Shown one piece after another: positions 7,771-19,267 of a stretch of DNA of 41,778 bases. Source of the DNA: a virus; IMG/VR virus record IMGVR_UViG_3300016484_000878, positions 1-41,778 of that record, one strand, 5' to 3'. The first letter of the stretch is position 1; the number at the start of each line of letters is the position of its first letter. The notes beneath the pieces were generated by a model. It made no database searches. It was given only the letters and a program-made list of their open reading frames with translations, and had not been told where the DNA came from. The translations under genes and the position numbers were made by a program.

Positions 7771-7800
7771 AGGGCATGAGCGCACCGCCCATGCCCTTCA
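7768..7800 (+). terminator. Hairpin (11-bp stem) overlapping the stop codon; attenuator or terminator candidate
   Basis: tgaagggcatg-11 nt-catgcccttca. There is no U-tract. Confidence 0.4.
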
Positions 7801-7845
7801 CCGACCCTGCAACCATCCACCCTCGCCGAGAAGAGTAACACGAAT

Positions 7846-10176
7846 ATGGACAAAGACGTTGCACTGAAGTGGCTGACGTGGCTCTACGGGGAGGCGTTCG
7901 AGGGCGGACTGTGGATCGGCGGGCATCTCGACGGCTTCAAAGGGCAGGTGTTCGACGGCGCCTACGCGCTCGAACGCGCGGTGGAGTACGCCGCAGCGCT
8001 CGACGACGCGGGCGCTGGGCACGAGATGGCCGGCGTGTATCACAGGCTCACGACGATGCGTGAGGTGGACGGTGGGCGCGGGAAGGTAGAGGACTCGGTC
8101 CTGTTGCCGGCGTTCGCCATGGACCTCGACATCCGCGGGCCGGGGCACAAGGCGGAGAACTACCCGGCGGACGAAGCGACGCTGCGCTCCCTGCTGGCCG
8201 ACGCGGGAGTGGTGGAGCCCTCGACGTGGGTGAACTCGGGCGGGGGGCGATACGCGTTCTGGAAGCTGGACGCGCCGGCGCCCGTCTGGGATGCCGACGT
8301 GCGCGCGGCGATGATGGAGCGCTCGGCCAGACTGCACGCCGGCGTCATCGCGGTGGCGAAGTCGCTCGGGCTGAAGGTGGACAACACGCGGGACCTCGCG
8401 CGCGTCTACCGCCTGCCGGGGACCACCAACCGCAAACCCGGTTGCGCGCCCGTCACGGCCACGTGGACGGGCGCGGACGGCGCCAGGACGTATCTGGCCA
8501 GCCAGGTGGAGGCGACGCGTCACCCGACGACTCAATCCGTCTCTTGGGCGGAGGCCGTGGAGTCTTCGCAGCGAGATTTCCGCGAGATCGAAGCGCGGCG
8601 CGATGCGCTCAACGTTCCCGCGTTCGACCTTCAGGGCGGGATGGCAGGGCTGTTCGGCCAGGCGCGAGCGCACGACCCCGCAGAGGCGCGCGGCTTCACG
8701 GTGGCTCAGGCGATGGCGTTCGTTCGGCCGGCGCTCGACGCGCTGCGCGGCGCCGCCGACGGAGAGATCAACGTCCGGTTGAACGAGGCGGCGTGCGCGC
8801 TGGCGCACTTCGGCCCGGAGTTCTGGGACGAGGCGGCGGCTGATCGTCAGCTCGATGCCGCACTCGCCTGCACGATGTACGACGGGCTGACGTGGCAGGC
8901 GGCGGACACGATCGCGTCGGCTAGGCGCGCCATGGCGTCGGACTGGCGGGCGCTGCTCATTCCTGAGCCCGCGGCAGCGCTCGACGCTGCGGTGGCGATG
9001 GCGCCGGTGGATGAGGTCGATGCGCTGCTGGCCGAGATGCTTTCGCTCGACGAGATTGTCAGTCGGCCGGCGCCGAAGTTCCTCATCCACGGCCTGTTGC
9101 AGCTTGACAGCGAGTCGTGGCTGATTGGGCCACCCGGCTCGAAGAAGAGCTTCGTCGTGCTCGACATGGCGGCGCGCATCATCCGCGGCGAACCCTGGCA
9201 GGGGCGGCGTACCAATCCCGCCGACGTCGTGATGATCGTGGCCGAGGGCGCAGGTGGAGCGGGCAAGAGGGCGGACGCGTGGCAGCGGCGGTACGGGAAG
9301 GTGGGCGACGGCTTGTTCGTGCTCCCACGGCCTGTTCAGGCCGCGGACACGGCCAGATGGGGCGTGCTGGTGCGTGCGTGCGCCCGGCTGGCGGACTCGG
9401 CCAGGGAGCGCGGGCGGGGGCTGTTCGTCATCCTCGACACTCAGGCGCGTGTCACCGTAGGCCTGAAGGAGAACGACGCGACGGACATGGGCATCTTCGT
9501 GTCGGCCATCGGGGCGATCCGCGCGGCCACCGGCGGGTGCGTGCTGGCCGTCCACCACACAGGGCGAGCGGGCGGAGACGCGCGAGGCTCGTCGGCGATC
9601 GACGGCGCGCAGACCACCGAGCTCAAGGTGACGGCCAGCGGGAAGCTGACGGGCAAGCTCTCGATCGAGAAACAGAAGGACATCGAGGAGATCGAGCCCA
9701 TTCGTATCGCCTTCGAAGTGATCGAGCTGGGGGTGGATGCGGACGGAGAGCGGCTGACGTCGCTCGTGCTGGCCGAGCAGGATTCGACGGCGTTCAGGCT
9801 CGCGTGGGCCGGCGGCGAGGCCGGCGCGGAAGTGACCCAGGAAGCCCCGTTCAAGGAGCGCGTCGAGTGCGAGGCGTGGATCGTGGCGCGCCGCCCGGCC
9901 AGAGGGCAGGCGCCGGTCAATGAATGGTGGGTCATGCAAGCGCTCGTGGACACGGCCAGGACCACGGGGCTGACGCAGTCCGAGGTTCACGCCATCGTCG
10001 AAGAGAAGCGCGGGAAGGTCGACAAGACGACGTTCAAGCGTGCATGGCAGAAGGTCACCGAGGATGGCGGGGCATGGGCGGACGTCGTGATCAGTGCCGG
10101 CGGGCAGCGTTGGACAGTCGATCCAATGGCCGTGGAGTCGGCCAGGGAGGCGGCCGAAAGGGGCGCTGAAGACTAG
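7846..10176 (+). CDS. Bifunctional DNA primase-polymerase / RepA-DnaB-like helicase
   Basis: The N-terminal Prim-Pol motifs are AMDLDI, SGGGRYAFW and RLPGTTNRK. The C-terminal P-loop is LIGPPGSKKSF with RecA-like strands. Confidence 0.85.
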   Translation: MDKDVALKWLTWLYGEAFEGGLWIGGHLDGFKGQVFDGAYALERAVEYAAALDDAGAGHEMAGVYHRLTTMREVDGGRGKVEDSVLLPAFAMDLDIRGPGHKAENYPADEATLRSLLADAGVVEPSTWVNSGGGRYAFWKLDAPAPVWDADVRAAMMERSARLHAGVIAVAKSLGLKVDNTRDLARVYRLPGTTNRKPGCAPVTATWTGADGARTYLASQVEATRHPTTQSVSWAEAVESSQRDFREIEARRDALNVPAFDLQGGMAGLFGQARAHDPAEARGFTVAQAMAFVRPALDALRGAADGEINVRLNEAACALAHFGPEFWDEAAADRQLDAALACTMYDGLTWQAADTIASARRAMASDWRALLIPEPAAALDAAVAMAPVDEVDALLAEMLSLDEIVSRPAPKFLIHGLLQLDSESWLIGPPGSKKSFVVLDMAARIIRGEPWQGRRTNPADVVMIVAEGAGGAGKRADAWQRRYGKVGDGLFVLPRPVQAADTARWGVLVRACARLADSARERGRGLFVILDTQARVTVGLKENDATDMGIFVSAIGAIRAATGGCVLAVHHTGRAGGDARGSSAIDGAQTTELKVTASGKLTGKLSIEKQKDIEEIEPIRIAFEVIELGVDADGERLTSLVLAEQDSTAFRLAWAGGEAGAEVTQEAPFKERVECEAWIVARRPARGQAPVNEWWVMQALVDTARTTGLTQSEVHAIVEEKRGKVDKTTFKRAWQKVTEDGGAWADVVISAGGQRWTVDPMAVESAREAAERGAED

Positions 10177-10187
10177 TCGCGTGAGCA

Positions 10188-10439
10188 GGGGGCGCAAATA
10201 GGGGGCGCATTCCGAATGCGCCCCCCAATGCGCCCCCTGACGCATGACTAGGGTTTTGAGCTGAATGCGCCCCCAATGCGCCCCCCAATGCGCCCCCTGC
10301 TTGACCTGGGAAAACTCTTATGCGCCCCCAATGCGCCCCCAATGCGCCCCCTGGTCTAGTGACTATACAGCAATTGAATGCGCCCCCCCCACCCCCTCTC
10401 TCCTGAGGGAGAGGGGGGGGGCGCATAGCTCGGCGCATT
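10188..10439. repeat. Iteron array: 11-bp unit AATGCGCCCCC (9 direct, 3 inverted, 1 partial); candidate origin of replication
   Basis: Direct copies start at 10215, 10227, 10264, 10275, 10287, 10319, 10330, 10341 and 10377. Inverted copies start at 10188, 10201 and 10413. A partial copy is at 10432. The region is non-coding. Confidence 0.8.
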
Positions 10440-13499: not shown

Positions 13500-13783
13500 T
13501 GGCGAAGGTGATGCTCGCTGGCGAGATGGCCGATCTCAACGGTCCGATCAACACGGCTGTCAAGGCATGGTTGGTTGGGCAGGGGTTCGATCTGAATGAT
13601 GTGCGCGGCTACACGCTGACGTACGACGCGAACGACGTCATGACGATCGATATCCGCATGTACATGACCGACGAAGTGCCGGCGCCGAAGCTGCGCAAAT
13701 ACTGCGCAGCTTGCGTCGAGCGATGCGAGACCGGCCACGATCCATGCTTGACGGAATCGGGCGATTGTGCAGCCTATTCGTAA
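13499..13783 (+). CDS. Hypothetical protein
   Basis: ATG 13499 in a TGATG overlap; 94 aa, with a Cys-rich C-terminus. Confidence 0.7.
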   Translation: MAKVMLAGEMADLNGPINTAVKAWLVGQGFDLNDVRGYTLTYDANDVMTIDIRMYMTDEVPAPKLRKYCAACVERCETGHDPCLTESGDCAAYS

Positions 13784-16061
13784 ACGGATCGAGACCAGGG
13801 GAGCGGCCAGGCAGCTACTGTCTGACCGCTCCCCTGAAGTGCTCACAGTCGGCGCCGCCGGCACGGGCAAGAGTTTCGGGGCGCTGTGGAAAATCCACCT
13901 CATGTGCCTGCTGAACGGGAAGTGTTCGCCGGACTGCGAGCGCGAGCACGAGCATCACGATCGCGGCATGAAGGCGCTCATCGTGCGCCAGACGCTCAAG
14001 AGCTTGACCTCGACAGGGCTCGTCACCTTTCGCGAGCAAGTGGCCGCAGACGCCATCGCTCAGGGGATCGTGCGCTGGTATGGCGGGAGCGGCGAGAAGC
14101 CGGCGCAGTACATCTATGAGAACGGATCGTCGATCGTCGTCGGTGGCCTCGATAATCCTGATAAGGTGATGTCCACCGAATATGACTGCGTGATCGGCGA
14201 GACGTTGATAGACAGCGTCTCGCCGATCGAGCGCGCCTACTCTCGTCCGTACTCAGGCAAACTCATCACTGTCACCACGGCCGCGGGCCACCAACTCACC
14301 GGAACCCCGAACCACCCAGTACTCACCCCGCATGGATGGCGTGCGCTGAATCAACTCAGCGAGGGTGGCCACCTGATGCGCCGCGCTCGGAGTGAGCAGG
14401 AATCCATCGGTGGGGCGAACCCAGATGTAGCAGACCAACCATCCTCGATCGCAGAGGTAGCGCGTGCGTTTGCGCTCGCGAATCCTGGTCGGTCCGAGCG
14501 GGTTGAAACTGTAGCGATGGACTTCCACGGCGACGGAGTCCCCGATGGCTATGTCGACGTTGTATCTGCCGACGGCTTTTTCCATCACGCCATCGATCCC
14601 GCGAGCTTTGATCATGTCATTGAAGTCGACAGCGACGGGGCTGATCTTGAGCCCGCGCCGCTCATGGCTGAGCGAACGTCTGTCGAGGTGATCGGCGCTC
14701 GATACGCGTCCACGATTCAAGATGCCTTGCTGTTTTCCGAGTTCGCTCATGCGAGTACGATTCTCGGGAGAGTTGCGCCACGCCTCACCGTTGCGGGTGG
14801 CGGACTCGGTGAATCGACGCTTCCATTCGGTGTCGGCATCGCGAACGTGGCGGAGCGCCTGCCCTTCGCTTTTGGTGCGGACACGAACGCCACGCTTGGT
14901 CATCTCCTCACGGAAACGGCCGGCGCTGACGTGGATGGACTTCGCGGCGGCCATCAGCCGGAATTCCCCTTTGAGGTAACGGCTGATCGCATCGTCAAAA
15001 TCAGCGTCACTGACGCTGGACCGGGCAGGCATGTGTACAACCTCCAGACGGGTAGCCACTGGTACGTAGCCAACGAGATAATATCACATAACTGTATCTT
15101 CGTTCAGGAGGCTACGGATATCACGCTGGAATCGTGGGAGAAACTCAACTCACGATTGCGTAATGGGCGCGTGTCTTTTCAGCAGTTGCTCGCCGACTGT
15201 AACCCGCAACAGCCGTCGCACTGGCTGAAGAAGCGGTGCGATGAGGGTAAGACGACGATGCTCATCTCGCGTCACGAGGACAATCCTCGCCTGTTCGGTG
15301 ATGATGGGGAGCTGACGTCGTACGGGAGCGCGTACATCGCGCGCCTCGACAACCTCACGGGTGTGCGTTACCTCAGGCTGCGCAAGGGGAAGTGGGCGGC
15401 GGCCGAAGGGCTGATCTACGAAGATTGGAGTCCTGATCGCAATGTCATCGATCGCAAGGTGTTGCCGATGGACTGGCCGCGATATTGGGCTGTGGACTTC
15501 GGGTACACGAATCCATTCGTGTGGCAGATGTGGGCTATTGATCCTGATGGTAGGGCTTATCTCGAAAAGGAGATCTATAAGACAAAAAGGCTGGTTGAGG
15601 ATCACGCCAAAGACATTCTCCGGGTGGTTGTTGCTGAGAATGGGAAGTGGAAATACCCGCGTCCACAAGCGGTCATATGCGATCACGATGCGGAGGACCG
15701 GGCGACGCTGGAGCGTCACCTCGGGTTCGGGACGGTAGCTGCAAACAAGACAGTCAGTGAGGGGATTCAGGCGGTCCAGTCGCGTATCAAGGTGGCCGGC
15801 GACGGATTGCCACGCCTGTTCGTCCTGAGGGATGCGCTCGTCGAACGCGACGGCGAACTGAAGCAGGCCGGCCTGCCGACGTGCACGCTCGAAGAGATCG
15901 AGGGCTACGTCTGGAAACCGAAGCCTGGCGGCGTGCTCCCCAAAGAGGTGCCGGATGAGCCGCTGAAAAAGGATGACCACGGATGCGATGCAGGGCGCTA
16001 TTTCGTCGCGCACCTTGATCTCGCGCCCCGCGTGCGCGTCAGGGTCATTCGTCCTCGATGA
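13767..16061 (+). CDS. terL: Terminase large subunit, interrupted by an intein
   Basis: Walker A GAAGTGKS. The exteins join as ...VMSTEYD|CIFVQEATD... (Walker-B-like region). The C-terminal nuclease domain is intact. The mature protein is about 462 aa after removal of the 302-aa intein. Confidence 0.88.
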   Translation: MQPIRKRIETRGAARQLLSDRSPEVLTVGAAGTGKSFGALWKIHLMCLLNGKCSPDCEREHEHHDRGMKALIVRQTLKSLTSTGLVTFREQVAADAIAQGIVRWYGGSGEKPAQYIYENGSSIVVGGLDNPDKVMSTEYDCVIGETLIDSVSPIERAYSRPYSGKLITVTTAAGHQLTGTPNHPVLTPHGWRALNQLSEGGHLMRRARSEQESIGGANPDVADQPSSIAEVARAFALANPGRSERVETVAMDFHGDGVPDGYVDVVSADGFFHHAIDPASFDHVIEVDSDGADLEPAPLMAERTSVEVIGARYASTIQDALLFSEFAHASTILGRVAPRLTVAGGGLGESTLPFGVGIANVAERLPFAFGADTNATLGHLLTETAGADVDGLRGGHQPEFPFEVTADRIVKISVTDAGPGRHVYNLQTGSHWYVANEIISHNCIFVQEATDITLESWEKLNSRLRNGRVSFQQLLADCNPQQPSHWLKKRCDEGKTTMLISRHEDNPRLFGDDGELTSYGSAYIARLDNLTGVRYLRLRKGKWAAAEGLIYEDWSPDRNVIDRKVLPMDWPRYWAVDFGYTNPFVWQMWAIDPDGRAYLEKEIYKTKRLVEDHAKDILRVVVAENGKWKYPRPQAVICDHDAEDRATLERHLGFGTVAANKTVSEGIQAVQSRIKVAGDGLPRLFVLRDALVERDGELKQAGLPTCTLEEIEGYVWKPKPGGVLPKEVPDEPLKKDDHGCDAGRYFVAHLDLAPRVRVRVIRPR
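14253..15032 (-). CDS. Antisense-nested endonuclease-like gene inside the intein (HTH + NUMOD3-like + Vsr/DUF559-type PD-(D/E)XK)
   Basis: 259 codons from ATG 15032, with GGAGG 8 nt upstream; the ORF stays open up to GTG 15059. Motifs: AISRYLKGE...AAAKSIHVSAGRFREEMTKRGVRV, WRNSPENRTRMSELGKQQG and GRYNVDIAIGDSVAVEVH. Composition is protein-like (about 10 Lys), whereas the sense frame has none over 245 codons. A GC-driven shadow ORF is not excluded. Confidence 0.6.
   Translation of the reverse strand: MPARSSVSDADFDDAISRYLKGEFRLMAAAKSIHVSAGRFREEMTKRGVRVRTKSEGQALRHVRDADTEWKRRFTESATRNGEAWRNSPENRTRMSELGKQQGILNRGRVSSADHLDRRSLSHERRGLKISPVAVDFNDMIKARGIDGVMEKAVGRYNVDIAIGDSVAVEVHRYSFNPLGPTRIRERKRTRYLCDRGWLVCYIWVRPTDGFLLTPSAAHQVATLAELIQRTPSMRGEYWVVRGSGELVARGRGDSDEFA
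15078..15088 (-). promoter_or_regulatory. Extended -10 (TGTGATATTAT) for the antisense gene
   Basis: The minus strand reads tgtgaTATTAT. It is built from the rare ATA-ATA-TCA-CAT codons of the last intein block and lies about 45 nt upstream of ATG 15032. Confidence 0.45.
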
Positions 16062-17436: not shown

Positions 17437-17766
17437 ATGGTGACGATGGGGATCGAGCAGCGCGGCGTGCGCCCCCGTACCTCGCTGCGTGACCTCCTCG
17501 AAGCCAGAGACGCGTCTCTTCGCGTCCGCGGTAGCCGCATCACTGCCGCGTTGGTGCGCGCCCGGCGGCTTGTGGCTGGCCGCGCCGGGGCTGCCGGGCG
17601 CGCGCTCCTCATCGCCGTGCTCTTCGTCGCCAGCCAGGTGCACAGGCACGGGCTGGTGCTGGCCGGCTTGGCGTCGTTCGTGCTGGCCGCCGCGCTCTAC
17701 TCCCCGATCGCCGCGCTCGTTACTGCCGGCGTGTCCCTCTTCTTTCTGGAATTGAGGCGCCGGTGA
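17437..17766 (+). CDS. Membrane protein (2 TM helices)
   Basis: 109 aa with hydrophobic segments ALLIAVLFVASQV and LAGLASFVLAAALYSPIAALVTAGVSLFFL. Confidence 0.65.
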   Translation: MVTMGIEQRGVRPRTSLRDLLEARDASLRVRGSRITAALVRARRLVAGRAGAAGRALLIAVLFVASQVHRHGLVLAGLASFVLAAALYSPIAALVTAGVSLFFLELRRR

Positions 17767-19031
17767 GCGTGCGCAGCCTTCTCGGCGGGATGGTGAACGA
17801 GTCACCCGTCCCTCTGGTGTCGCGCTGGGGTGCCGGCCGTGGACTCGGGACCATGTTCACCGGACGTGGGCGCACGGCTGAGTTGGAGTCGCTGAACGCC
17901 ACGGCCACGCTTTACGGGGTCGTCAAGAAACTCAGCAAGGCGACGGCCGCCGTCGAGTGGACGCTCGATCGCAAGCCGGCCAGGCCCGGTGACGATCCCA
18001 TCCCGCTGACCGGCGGGCGCGCCGAGAGCGCCGCCCCGCTGCGCGTGTGGAGCAACCCCACTGACGCGCCGCACATCAACGCCGCCTACTTCCGTCAGGG
18101 CAGCCAGCAGCACTATGACCTGTGCGGTGAGTTCTGGTGGGTGGTGCTGAAGTTCGCGGGCATCCCCGTGCAGCTCTGGCCGGTTCGGCCAGACCGCATC
18201 ACGCCGGTCCCGAGCCAGACCCGGCTGGTGGCCGGCTATCTCTATCGCTCGCCTGACGGCGAAGAGGTTCCGCTTGAGGTGGACGACGTCATCTGCTCCA
18301 TCGATCCCTCGCCCACCGACCCCCTCCGCGGCGCCGGCCCAATCGGCGCGCTGGCGTCCGACCTGGCCGAGAGTAGGGCACAGGCGGCGTGGCAGGCTGC
18401 CACCTATCGCAACGGTGCTCAGCCGGGCGGCATCATCAAGGTGGGCCGCAAGCTCAGCGACTCCGAATGGGATGACCTCGTCGAGCGCTGGCGCTTCGAA
18501 CACCAGGGCACGGAGAACGCGGGACGCGTCGCAGTCCTCGAAGAAGGCGATTTCACGCCGCTCTCGTACGCGCAGAAGGACATGCAGTTCGTCGAGTCGC
18601 GCGGCCTGACGCGTCAGGCGATCTTCGATGCGTACGGCTTCCCGAAATTCGGCATCGGTGACGTGGATGACGTGAACCGCGCGTCGGCCGAGGCGTCGAT
18701 GGCGATGTTCTCGCAGACGCTGACCGTCCCGCGTCTGGAGAACTTCCGCACCGTTCTCAACACGCGCTTTCTGCCGATGTTCGGTAGCGCGTGGAAGAAC
18801 TACGAGTTCAACTACGCCGATCCCGTTCCTGCTGACGCAGAGGGTGAGCGCCAGGACCTGACGACGAAGTCGAGTGCGTTCAAGACGCTCATCGACGCAG
18901 GCGTCAATCCTGAGGATGCGGCGGAGGTGTGTGGCCTCCCCCCGATGCGGGTGGACAAGAAGCCCGAACCCGCTCCCGTGGTGCCAGGTGCGCCCGAACC
19001 TGAGCCCGACCCGAGTGAAGGCGATAAATGA
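17763..19031 (+). CDS. Portal protein (HK97-family-like)
   Basis: 422 aa, positioned between terminase and protease, with a portal-like sequence pattern. GTG start in a GTGA overlap. Confidence 0.8.
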   Translation: MSVRSLLGGMVNESPVPLVSRWGAGRGLGTMFTGRGRTAELESLNATATLYGVVKKLSKATAAVEWTLDRKPARPGDDPIPLTGGRAESAAPLRVWSNPTDAPHINAAYFRQGSQQHYDLCGEFWWVVLKFAGIPVQLWPVRPDRITPVPSQTRLVAGYLYRSPDGEEVPLEVDDVICSIDPSPTDPLRGAGPIGALASDLAESRAQAAWQAATYRNGAQPGGIIKVGRKLSDSEWDDLVERWRFEHQGTENAGRVAVLEEGDFTPLSYAQKDMQFVESRGLTRQAIFDAYGFPKFGIGDVDDVNRASAEASMAMFSQTLTVPRLENFRTVLNTRFLPMFGSAWKNYEFNYADPVPADAEGERQDLTTKSSAFKTLIDAGVNPEDAAEVCGLPPMRVDKKPEPAPVVPGAPEPEPDPSEGDK

Positions 19032-19267
19032 ACGCCTTCCTTGCTGCATTGCTCGGCCAGATCGAGGCGGCGATGCGCTGGCAAGTGAAGGCGCACATCG
19101 ACGCGAACGTGTGTGAGCCCTGCAAAAAGAACGATCGGAAGTTGTACCGGAATCGCACGTCCGCCTATGCTGACTACCCAGGAGGCAAGGGCTACATCAA
19201 GTGCGTCGGGGCGAAGTATGGCAACACGTGTCGATGCACTGTGAAGAAGCGAAAGGGGATGTCGTGA
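19028..19267 (+). CDS. Small Cys-rich (zinc-ribbon-like) head-module protein
   Basis: 79 aa with CEPC...C..C.C motifs. ATGA overlap with the portal gene. Confidence 0.7.
   Translation: MNAFLAALLGQIEAAMRWQVKAHIDANVCEPCKKNDRKLYRNRTSAYADYPGGKGYIKCVGAKYGNTCRCTVKKRKGMS

Follow-up and report, generated by a model that had tools for sequence, protein, structure and literature searches.

Endonuclease open reading frames (ORFs) on the strand opposite an intein have been described before. Gosselin, Arsenault and Gogarten found antisense VSR-like endonuclease ORFs in full inteins of actinobacteriophage MuF-like minor capsid proteins, an arrangement that they deemed rare and derived from invasion by free-standing endonuclease genes (bioRxiv 10.1101/2025.01.02.630785). 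According to Supplemental Table 1 of this preprint, the type 'VSR -1 ORF' occurs only in MuF-like or putative minor capsid proteins (Malisha, Vivi2, Angelicage, Affeca, Fosterous, Kewpiedoll, Sejanus and others), and the non-canonical inteins of the large terminase subunit (TerL) are classified as 'OOF ENDO VII'. Antisense LAGLIDADG ORFs, as summarised in the same preprint, occur in the inteins of Synechocystis DnaX and a Chloroflexus SpoVR-like protein (Gorbalenya, 1998; Gogarten, 2002). A further type are the fractured genes, in which a free-standing Vsr-like homing endonuclease gene lies between the halves of a split intein (Dassa et al., 2009; PMC2677866). A full-text search brought up no other papers on antisense endonuclease genes in inteins. 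In this study, we analysed the IMG/VR virus record IMGVR_UViG_3300016484_000878, a stretch of 41,778 nucleotides (nt) referred to below as the window, in which the terL gene contains an intein with a nuclease gene nested on its opposite strand.

We consider it highly probable that the splicing-only class-1 intein in TerL and the separate homing endonuclease gene, which is antisense to it and in codon register, constitute a composite mobile element. Such a division of labour between a mini-intein and an antisense homing endonuclease gene had been proposed from the letters of the window alone (in the following, the original prediction), and the profile, composition and substitution checks described here argue for it. 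Its authors had known of no intein with this organisation, which is, however, already contained in the preprint cited above. The actinophages that matched the window nuclease in a tblastn search, namely Vivi2, Fosterous, Affeca, Angelicage, Sejanus, Malisha, Keitabear and Sedona (E 3e-28 to 9e-8), are members of the VSR intein alignment of the preprint, and because the phages of its Supplemental Table 1 reappear as these matches, the element of the window is homologous to the type described there, with a host gene that is new for it. Transcription, translation, splicing, cleavage and the target site of the element are predictions made from sequence.

The terL intein and the gene on its opposite strand

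The terL gene (13767..16061, plus strand, GTG start) encodes a large terminase subunit precursor of 764 amino acids of the PBSX/Terminase_3 type, with matches to phrog_2 (E 4e-32), TIGR01547 (E 5.5e-14) and Terminase_3. It is interrupted by a class-1 Hint intein of 302 codons (14187..15092, plus strand), with Cys1 at 14187-14189, the terminal His-Asn at 15087-15092 and the +1 Cys of the extein at 15093-15095. The split at STEYD/C...HN/C (the slash marks the junctions) had been read from the sequence alone and was confirmed by an intein-less allele (L114, protein P0025), whose exteins are 92% identical in amino acids to the window TerL. This allele reads ...MSTEYD/VIFVQEATD where the window reads ...MSTEYD/C[intein]...SHN/CIFVQEATD, with Val in place of the +1 Cys, and the gap in the alignment is exactly 302 codons. 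The sequence of the empty allele around the insertion point is ...GAATATGAC/GTCATCTTCGTT..., also given as GAATATGAC/GTCATCTTC.... Directly after the insertion point follows IFVQEA (15096..15113, plus strand), a Walker-B-like motif of TerL at which the Terminase_3 match starts; it is presumably the Walker B motif itself, and its surroundings are the presumed homing target.

The intein models of Pfam (Intein_splicing, PF14890; 39.6 bits on the sense frame, 36.5 in the whole protein, cut-off 35.8) and NCBIfam (TIGR01445 intein_Nterm; 28.7 bits, cut-off 24.5) align solely to the two ends of the sense frame. The N-terminal splicing lobe (14187..14399, plus strand) contains block A, CVIGETLID, and block B, TGTPNHP, with Thr40 at 14304-14306 and His43 at 14313-14315, and the C-terminal lobe (14990..15092, plus strand) contains blocks F and G, HVYNLQTGSHWYVANEIISHN, with a weak match to TIGR01443. 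When 67 non-redundant host ORFs are aligned, the terminal Asn and the His of block B show no variation, and conservation reaches at least 90% for Cys1, the Thr of block B and the +1 Cys. Both lobes were modelled confidently by AlphaFold, with a pLDDT (predicted local distance difference test) score of 63-89 (for the N-terminal lobe over residues 10-70; 58-89 for the C-terminal lobe), as opposed to 23-53 for the linker between them. This linker (14400..14989, plus strand; about 180 residues predicted to be disordered) is a mirror-image translation of the nuclease core. It does not look like an endonuclease domain, as had been noted from its motifs: the sense frame gave no match to an endonuclease family in Pfam or NCBIfam, and a domain search of the linker in Pfam, NCBIfam and PHROG returned nothing except relatives with the same module. 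It is rich in Ala, Gly, Val and Asp, and the run of codons without Lys is indeed 245 codons long (K25 to K271). A group I intron or other structured RNA was not found in the region by Rfam at E <=0.1.

On the minus strand, the nested nuclease gene (14253..15032) encodes 259 amino acids, with the start codon ATG at 15032..15030 and the stop codon TGA at 14255..14253; the frame is open up to 15059 (14253..15059, 268 amino acids). The nuclease ORF and terL share the same codon triplets, as had been claimed (register offset 0; 13767 and 14256 are both 0 mod 3), which means that position 3 of a nuclease codon is position 1 of a host codon and nuclease position 1 is host position 3. The protein contains 10 Lys and the gene no TTA, CTA or TCA codon, also in line with the original prediction. 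In three related loci (L112, L113 and L005) the ORF is intact with the same start and stop. The content of guanine plus cytosine (GC) at codon positions 1 and 3 is 0.61-0.65 and 0.71-0.79 in the exteins and flips to 0.71 and 0.64 in the sense frame of the overlap, where the complemented base frequencies match normal codon positions, which fits a gene on the minus strand.

AlphaFold, run with 20 homologues, gave a mean pLDDT of 85 for the antisense protein, which is laid out as a helix-turn-helix (HTH) region at residues 9-46, a helical middle part, an alpha/beta core at residues 148-230 and a C-terminal hairpin at residues 237-252. The HTH region (14895..15008, minus strand; helices 9-20, 26-32 and 37-46, pLDDT ~90), presumed to bind DNA, had been anticipated and is supported by homologues with HTH_23, HTH_28 or HTH_7 domains and by a profile match to the HTH protein 2LVS (E 1e-4). 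A NUMOD3-like segment, also postulated, had to be abandoned, as there is no family match and AlphaFold places plain helices there. The core (14343..14591, minus strand) is of the Vsr/EDxHD-like type. Its top PDB match in Foldseek is 3R3P, the catalytic domain of I-Bth0305I (probability 1.00, E 2.7e-3, template modelling (TM) score 0.59 to the target), followed by other PD-(D/E)XK nucleases. Y157, N158, D160, E170 and R189 are invariant in 20 sequences; Asp160 (14555..14553, in YNVD) and Glu170 (14525..14523, in AVEV) do not vary in sets of 20 and 14 sequences and are matched in the alignment by the D and E of 3HRL, as counterparts of Vsr Asp51 and of the Glu common to all Vsr-like endonucleases. 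Two active-site variants divide the family (loci L006, L027, L052 and L054 are those listed with this comparison): E(V/I)xGGxWH in 51 non-redundant loci versus EVH...(N/H)P in the whole TerL clade and in the Vivi2-like MuF inteins, Vivi2 carrying a slightly modified form of the EVHRYSFNPLG sequence of the window. The C-terminal beta-hairpin, GEYWVVRGSGELVA (14277..14324, minus strand; pLDDT >90), is antisense to block B, LTGTPNHPV. This tail motif, GEYRVIRGSGEL, is conserved across the nuclease family as the mirror of block B and lies outside the region that was aligned to 3HRL and 3R3P.

The translation signals of the nuclease gene are embedded in codons of the intein. The start codon is the antisense of the first His codon of block F (H-V-Y-N-L-Q-T) in 44/44 aligned non-redundant loci, CAT giving ATG and CAC giving GTG. 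The Shine-Dalgarno (SD) sequence GGAGG, which had been noticed 8 nt upstream of the ATG, was found at 15041..15045 (minus strand) as the antisense of block F Asn-Leu-Gln (AAC CTC CAG), and 36 of the 44 loci have an SD-like motif 5-18 nt upstream of the start. The Leu of block F, whose codon lies opposite the SD core GAG, is encoded by CTC in 33 of 38 loci, as opposed to 9.5 expected from the Leu usage of the exteins (p 1.7e-15), and this holds for loci with a GC content <=0.58 as well (12 of 13 versus 1.7 expected). Since such conservation of one synonymous codon is otherwise hard to explain, the antisense ORF is probably translated. The stop codon TGA is the antisense of the TCA codon of intein Ser23, between blocks A and B. 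The original prediction had placed the nuclease between the splicing blocks; it is nested in the intein as described, but its start and SD sequence lie within block F and its C-terminal hairpin overlaps block B.

Relatives and selection on the two reading frames

The protein collection contains 20 homologues of the antisense protein with 25-60% identity, named there 'very-short-patch-repair endonuclease', several of them with PF18741 and an HTH domain. Using tblastn, the nuclease was located in 113 GenBank phage records, in each case under a structural gene on the opposite strand, in phages of Gordonia, Mycobacterium, Salmonella, Escherichia, Pseudomonas, Vibrio, Idiomarina and Aggregatibacter/Haemophilus. 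The nuclease motif pattern G[RPK]YN[VI]DI gave 170 confirmed IMG/VR loci and 8 loci in GTDB genomes, and the relatives that enter the comparisons below match the window nuclease ORF at E 3e-28 to 1e-93; a scan of metagenome contigs with the single protein produced 266 pattern matches, none of which was confirmed. In 103/103 loci (78 non-redundant, GC 0.38-0.73), no stop codon interrupts the host frame over the full length of the nuclease match, and the register offset is 0. Intein status was judged by Pfam and alignment, and 56 of 67 non-redundant host ORFs reach the Pfam intein model. The exteins are MuF (36), portal-adjacent (6), minor capsid protein 2 (4), VG15 (4) and Terminase_3 proteins (3), among others. 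Three distant homologues that looked like free-standing genes in structural modules (P0008, P0009 and P0010) were rejected as such, as their opposite strands are continuous intein-bearing ORFs. An apparent interruption of the nuclease frame in Salmonella phage vB_STM-ZS (L109) turned out to be a stop upstream of the true ATG, the ORF itself being intact.

Nearly all of the 113 phage records carry no annotation of the nuclease ORF (L006-L015 and L104-L111 are examples, including Jerseyvirus MT588083, Snoke MK931441, Aaphi23 AJ560763 and Vivi2 KU963250); PK2 (PV446483) and a few others list a 'hypothetical protein'. The host genes appear in these records under names such as 'NAD+--asparagine ADP-ribosyltransferase', 'capsid maturation protease' and 'head morphogenesis', and an intein is mentioned only in those of Snoke and KMB36. 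At four other loci (L001, 4548..6395; L002, 3792..6080; L004, 4134..5933; L005, 1625..3856), all on metagenome contigs, gene callers preferred the antisense nuclease and split or dropped the host gene, so that protein catalogues come to list seemingly free-standing nucleases and false fractured genes.

Selection on the two frames was assessed from codons that differ by a single nucleotide between the window and its relatives L112 and L113 (TerL identity to the window 81% and 73%), with counts of those changes that leave the amino acid unaltered in one frame only. In the exteins, sense-only synonymous changes exceed antisense-only ones by 142 to 8 (versus L112) and 127 to 12 (versus L113). The linker (14400-14989) has the opposite pattern, with 9 sense-only and 30 antisense-only changes versus L112 and 16 and 41 versus L113 (p ~0.001 each), and where the nuclease overlaps the N-terminal splicing lobe the counts are 5 to 5 and 10 to 6. 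The amino acid identity of the linker between the window and these two relatives reaches 0.76 in the antisense frame, compared with 0.62 in the sense frame, and the more distant members of the TerL clade point in the same direction. Such strong purifying selection on the sense frame of the exteins (142 versus 8) indicates that TerL is functional, and as this protein is essential, the intein is predicted to splice.

The second sample consisted of ten Guernseyvirinae alleles from Salmonella and E. coli phages with about 50% GC, for which single-nucleotide events were counted by host codon position. The events at positions 1, 2 and 3 number 94, 41 and 483 in the exteins, 19, 6 and 33 in the N-terminal lobe and 4, 1 and 15 in the C-terminal lobe, as opposed to 110, 13 and 34 in the linker, where the excess lies at position 1. 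The linker contains 104 changes synonymous only in the nuclease and 26 synonymous only in the host, with 323 and 308 such changes possible (p 1.3e-11). Judged by these substitution patterns, a single ORF appears to be divided into three regimes: the exteins and the non-overlapped ends of the intein are constrained in the sense frame, the linker in the antisense frame and the overlaps with splicing blocks in both. The original prediction had spoken of roughly 800 nt of obligatory dual-strand coding. Both frames are indeed open over that length, but dual constraint seems to be limited to about 150 nt (14253-14399) and about 45-70 nt (14990-15059), while for the central 590 nt it would suffice that the sense frame is free of stop codons.

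These patterns also bear on the question of whether the linker has a function of its own in the sense frame, for instance as an endonuclease or DNA-binding domain of a novel kind, within a conventional bifunctional intein. Three observations could be read in this way: a sense-frame motif, DFHGDG...(Y/D)VDVV, is conserved across the 67 host ORFs (window 14523..14560), phrog_15127 matches sense residues 1-153 with E 1.6e-27, and AlphaFold gives two weak strands at residues 104-127. However, the motif is the exact mirror of the nuclease core, in which AVEV becomes DFHG and NVDI becomes YVDV, and because Val-Asp (GTC GAC) is its own reverse complement, what looks like a conserved 'linker motif' in inteins can merely reflect the opposite strand. 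With its low pLDDT, the absence of a domain family match, a sense frame that evolves faster than the antisense frame through changes concentrated at sense codon position 1, and 245 codons without Lys, the linker is extremely unlikely to be such a domain.

Alternative explanations and the proposed homing cycle

Several observations weigh against the interpretation of the locus as an intein with an antisense homing endonuclease. In the window alone, the in-register antisense frame is open over 277 codons, which has a probability of about 0.22 under local codon usage, and of 232 control windows taken from neighbouring genes, 42 are open as well. A scan for sigma-70 promoters found no site on the minus strand; the extended -10 of the original prediction, TGATATTAT, is present at 15078..15088 (minus strand) and in L112, but this weak candidate is altered in L113 and absent in L005, and is therefore not conserved. 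The claim of a Vsr-type PD-(D/E)XK core is upheld by the fold, but not by a full family match, as PF18741 (REase_MTES_1575) reaches E 1.2e-4 with 22.5 bits on the antisense protein, below its cut-off of 38.2. The Foldseek E value and TM score rest on a 98-residue domain and give modest support for the nuclease family, and profile matches in the PDB are weak (3HRL, E 0.0017; 3R3P, E 0.0085; 1e-3 to 1e-2 overall). Vsr has a Trp68-His69 segment, which the E-V-x-G-G-x-W-H of most members of the nuclease family resembles (Dassa et al., 2009; PMC2677866). The window and the TerL clade instead read EVHRYSFNPLG (residues 170-180, 14493..14525, minus strand), with Phe-Asn in place of Trp-His and a clade-specific His172 at Glu+2, a sequence kept in 7/7 members of the clade. 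No free-standing member of the nuclease family was found among about 100 loci, which gives no support to the idea that the nested gene arose when a free-standing one invaded. Finally, the divergence between the window and L112 is similar in intein and extein (about 20% of nt), which means that there is no sign of very recent transfer.

The first of these points raises the possibility of a shadow ORF driven by GC content, in which case the antisense strand would code for nothing and the mini-intein would merely have a long junk linker. The probability of 0.22 is explained by the fact that, at 63% GC, TTA, CTA and TCA account for just 0.55% of the codons of neighbouring genes, and the double-open frame of the window was therefore rejected as evidence in itself; significance comes from the homologues and from the substitution patterns. 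Similar open stretches occur elsewhere in the window and in terL itself, and long ones are present in L005, L011, L112 and L113 too. In phages with 38-52% GC, by contrast, the nuclease ORF is intact where chance would allow this with a probability of 1e-3 to 1e-7 only. The probability that both frames are open is 3e-6 for Aaphi23, 2e-6 for an Idiomarinaceae phage, 9e-8 for a Vibrio phage, 5e-5 for KMB36 and about 1e-3 for Snoke and Jersey, and control genes at the low-GC loci have at most 164 open antisense codons, compared with 273-352 for the nuclease. Constraint on the sense frame alone was not seen: in the linker, it is the antisense frame for which changes are synonymous, the reverse of the exteins and of their own shadow ORF. 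Together with the pLDDT of 85 and nuclease fold of the antisense protein and the synonymous-codon bias that preserves start and SD sequence, this makes a shadow ORF almost certainly the wrong explanation.

The shadow ORF in terL serves as an internal control. It comprises 287 amino acids at 15150..16013 (minus strand), antisense and in register to the C-extein, and is truly GC-driven; its changes are mostly sense-synonymous (142 versus 8 in the comparison with L112), and the corresponding open stretches in L112 and L113 are 293 and 321 codons long. Two further long antisense pairs occur in the window, 7798..10245 (minus) opposite 7846..10176 (plus) and 17802..19049 (minus) opposite 17763..19031 (plus). 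Their minus-strand ORFs of 815 and 415 amino acids are probably shadow ORFs, because the partners on the plus strand are an AAA_25 primase-helicase and the portal protein.

Regarding mobility, the closest relative of the window by extein is intein-less (nucleotide identity 0.845), and the intein-bearing relatives follow at 0.802 and 0.721. The +1 residue is Val, Ile or Leu in 53 of 58 intein-less TerL homologues and Cys in 1, as opposed to Cys in 9/9 intein-bearing ones; because of this difference, the empty alleles look as if they had never been invaded rather than having arisen by precise deletion. The patchy presence of the intein, the naive appearance of the empty alleles and the range of exteins would fit gain by homing. 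The TerL homologues in the protein collection number 1612, including the identical P0021, and a megablast search of terL against the phage collection gave no match. Homologues of the same TerL family carry other types of intein (P0037, 1133 amino acids; P0053, 1058 amino acids; P0041 and P0044, 786 amino acids), with LAGLIDADG_3 or Hint_2 and in each case Intein_splicing, which identifies this terminase family as a repeated target of inteins.

The replacement of the Trp-His segment throughout the TerL clade and the similar divergence of intein and extein could mean that the nuclease of this lineage has been retired, the protein being inactive or a mere DNA binder in a vertically inherited intein, and its ORF kept by recent ancestry or by a secondary role. 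The preprint likewise regards some groups of VSR-like inteins as vertically inherited (10.1101/2025.01.02.630785). Within the TerL clade, however, the antisense frame is under purifying selection (30 versus 9 and 41 versus 16 changes; identity 0.76 versus 0.62), which speaks against this, as do the intact ORF in 7/7 sequences of the clade, down to 41% amino acid identity, and the strict conservation of EVHRYSFNPLG itself. The presence of the intein also departs from the extein tree, and the empty alleles look naive. We therefore regard a retired nuclease as unlikely.

A function other than homing is also conceivable, for example as an HTH regulator or a nickase in packaging, superinfection exclusion or anti-defence, for which the intein would be a mere place of residence. 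The long, helical and HTH-rich N-terminal half has no characterised counterpart, and nucleases encoded next to terminases can serve packaging (PMC3592412). Yet all 103 loci lie inside inteins of several unrelated host genes (MuF, TerL, minor capsid protein 2 and VG15), and a gene that benefits the phage would have no reason to travel with inteins only. Considering that the nearest solved relative is a homing endonuclease, such a function seems very unlikely.

If the intein and the nuclease gene do form a homing element, its cycle may be envisaged as follows. TerL would be translated as a precursor with the intein, which would splice itself out to give active terminase, while the linker, as the mirror reading of the nuclease gene, would merely have to be free of stop codons. 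The codon-on-codon register is the cheapest form of overlap, in which TerL stays open if the nuclease gene avoids TTA, CTA and TCA, all of which have synonyms. During co-infection, the nuclease would cut an intein-less terL near EYD/VIFVQEA, recombinational repair would copy the intein, the nuclease gene and the +1 Cys codon into the cut allele, and protein splicing would render the insertion harmless.

With regard to the whole family, the chances seem to us about even that the Vsr-like nucleases are not free-standing endonucleases that occasionally land in inteins, but the obligate and ancient partner of one intein lineage, which would make the module a distinct class of mobile element spread as a unit. 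According to this reading, which has the same even odds, the unit would have spread via MuF, TerL, minor capsid protein 2 and VG15 in phages of Actinobacteria, Proteobacteria and other phyla. Intein and nuclease would then be inseparable without rebuilding each other, because the start and SD sequence lie in block F, the hairpin in block B and the stop in the N-terminal lobe, and because the register is fixed. Such an element would have escaped annotation in more than 100 GenBank phage genomes, among them well-studied Jersey-like phages of Salmonella. Gene callers either overlook the nuclease, or call it and chop the essential host gene, and the latter creates false 'fractured genes' in metagenome catalogues. 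The overlap of about 780 nt is among the clearest natural long antisense gene overlaps in bacterial viruses, with both products definable and three regimes as an internal control. Splicing and homing would be supplied by two proteins that share DNA, which supports the view of 'splicing first, endonuclease later'. As phages of Salmonella, E. coli and Gordonia that carry the module can be cultivated, the hypothesis lends itself directly to experiment, and synonymous changes allow each frame to be mutated independently of the other.

The window itself, which stems from a JGI metagenome, is a tailed-phage genome of about 42 kb with genes for a helicase, an AAA_25 primase-helicase, TerL, a portal protein and an HK97-type capsid protein; no tRNA genes were found in it. 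L097 (IMGVR_UViG_3300037485_001042) is an unrelated IMG/VR contig with another member of the module. Its length equals that of the window (41,778 bp), for which reason a second copy in the window was considered; this was rejected, as the sequence of L097 is absent from the window and tblastn gives a single copy, and the equal length is a coincidence.

Comparison with known systems

The closest described system is that of the actinophage MuF-like proteins (10.1101/2025.01.02.630785). In both cases, the intein is unsplit and the VSR-like ORF is antisense in frame -1, and the sense 'HEN region' of the preprint, which lacks recognisable structure, corresponds to the linker of the window with its pLDDT of 23-53 as opposed to 85 for the antisense protein. 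Moreover, the window protein is homologous to that of Vivi2 (34.7% identity, E 3e-28) and shares EVH...(N/H)P with it. In contrast to the described cases, the extein here is TerL and the window derives from an uncultured metagenomic phage outside PhagesDB. The nested arrangement was found in 103/103 relatives, including phages of Salmonella, E. coli, Pseudomonas, Vibrio and Aggregatibacter. The main text of the preprint contains nothing on ribosome-binding sites, start codons or an analysis of synonymous sites.

The fractured genes of Dassa et al. resemble the window in that a Vsr-like putative endonuclease is tied, as a separate gene, to an intein in phage genes, including a terminase. They differ in consisting of two host ORFs with a split, trans-splicing intein, whereas the window has one ORF of 764 codons, and the host ORF is unbroken in 103/103 relatives too; both host ORF and intein can run on unbroken, since the nuclease is encoded opposite them in a register that is free of stops. 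I-Bth0305I (3R3P), a member of the EDxHD family encoded in the recA group I intron of Bacillus phage 0305phi8-36, is the best structural match of the predicted core and has in common with it the Vsr-like fold and a conserved acidic pair. However, the identity is only ~13-16%, I-Bth0305I is intron-borne and encoded on the sense strand, its N-terminal DNA-binding part is different, and the clade of the window lacks the 'WH'.

The antisense LAGLIDADG ORFs, as far as the preprint summarises them, share the position of the endonuclease on the strand opposite the intein, but they encode LAGLIDADG proteins in cellular hosts, whereas the window encodes a Vsr-like PD-(D/E)XK fold in a phage. Canonical bifunctional inteins with an in-frame LAGLIDADG or HNH domain are alike in that Hint lobes flank a segment coding for an endonuclease at a conserved site of an essential gene, and are presumably likewise mobile by homing. 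Their endonuclease is part of the same polypeptide, in contrast to the disordered spacer and the separate protein with its own start, SD sequence and stop found here. Compared with these systems, the present analysis adds the wide spread of the arrangement outside actinophages, with no free-standing relative among about 100 loci, statistical proof that both frames are maintained, a map of three regimes, signals embedded in the splicing blocks and a fixed register. The organisation as such was already known; what is new is TerL as the extein and the breadth and depth of the coupling between intein and nuclease.

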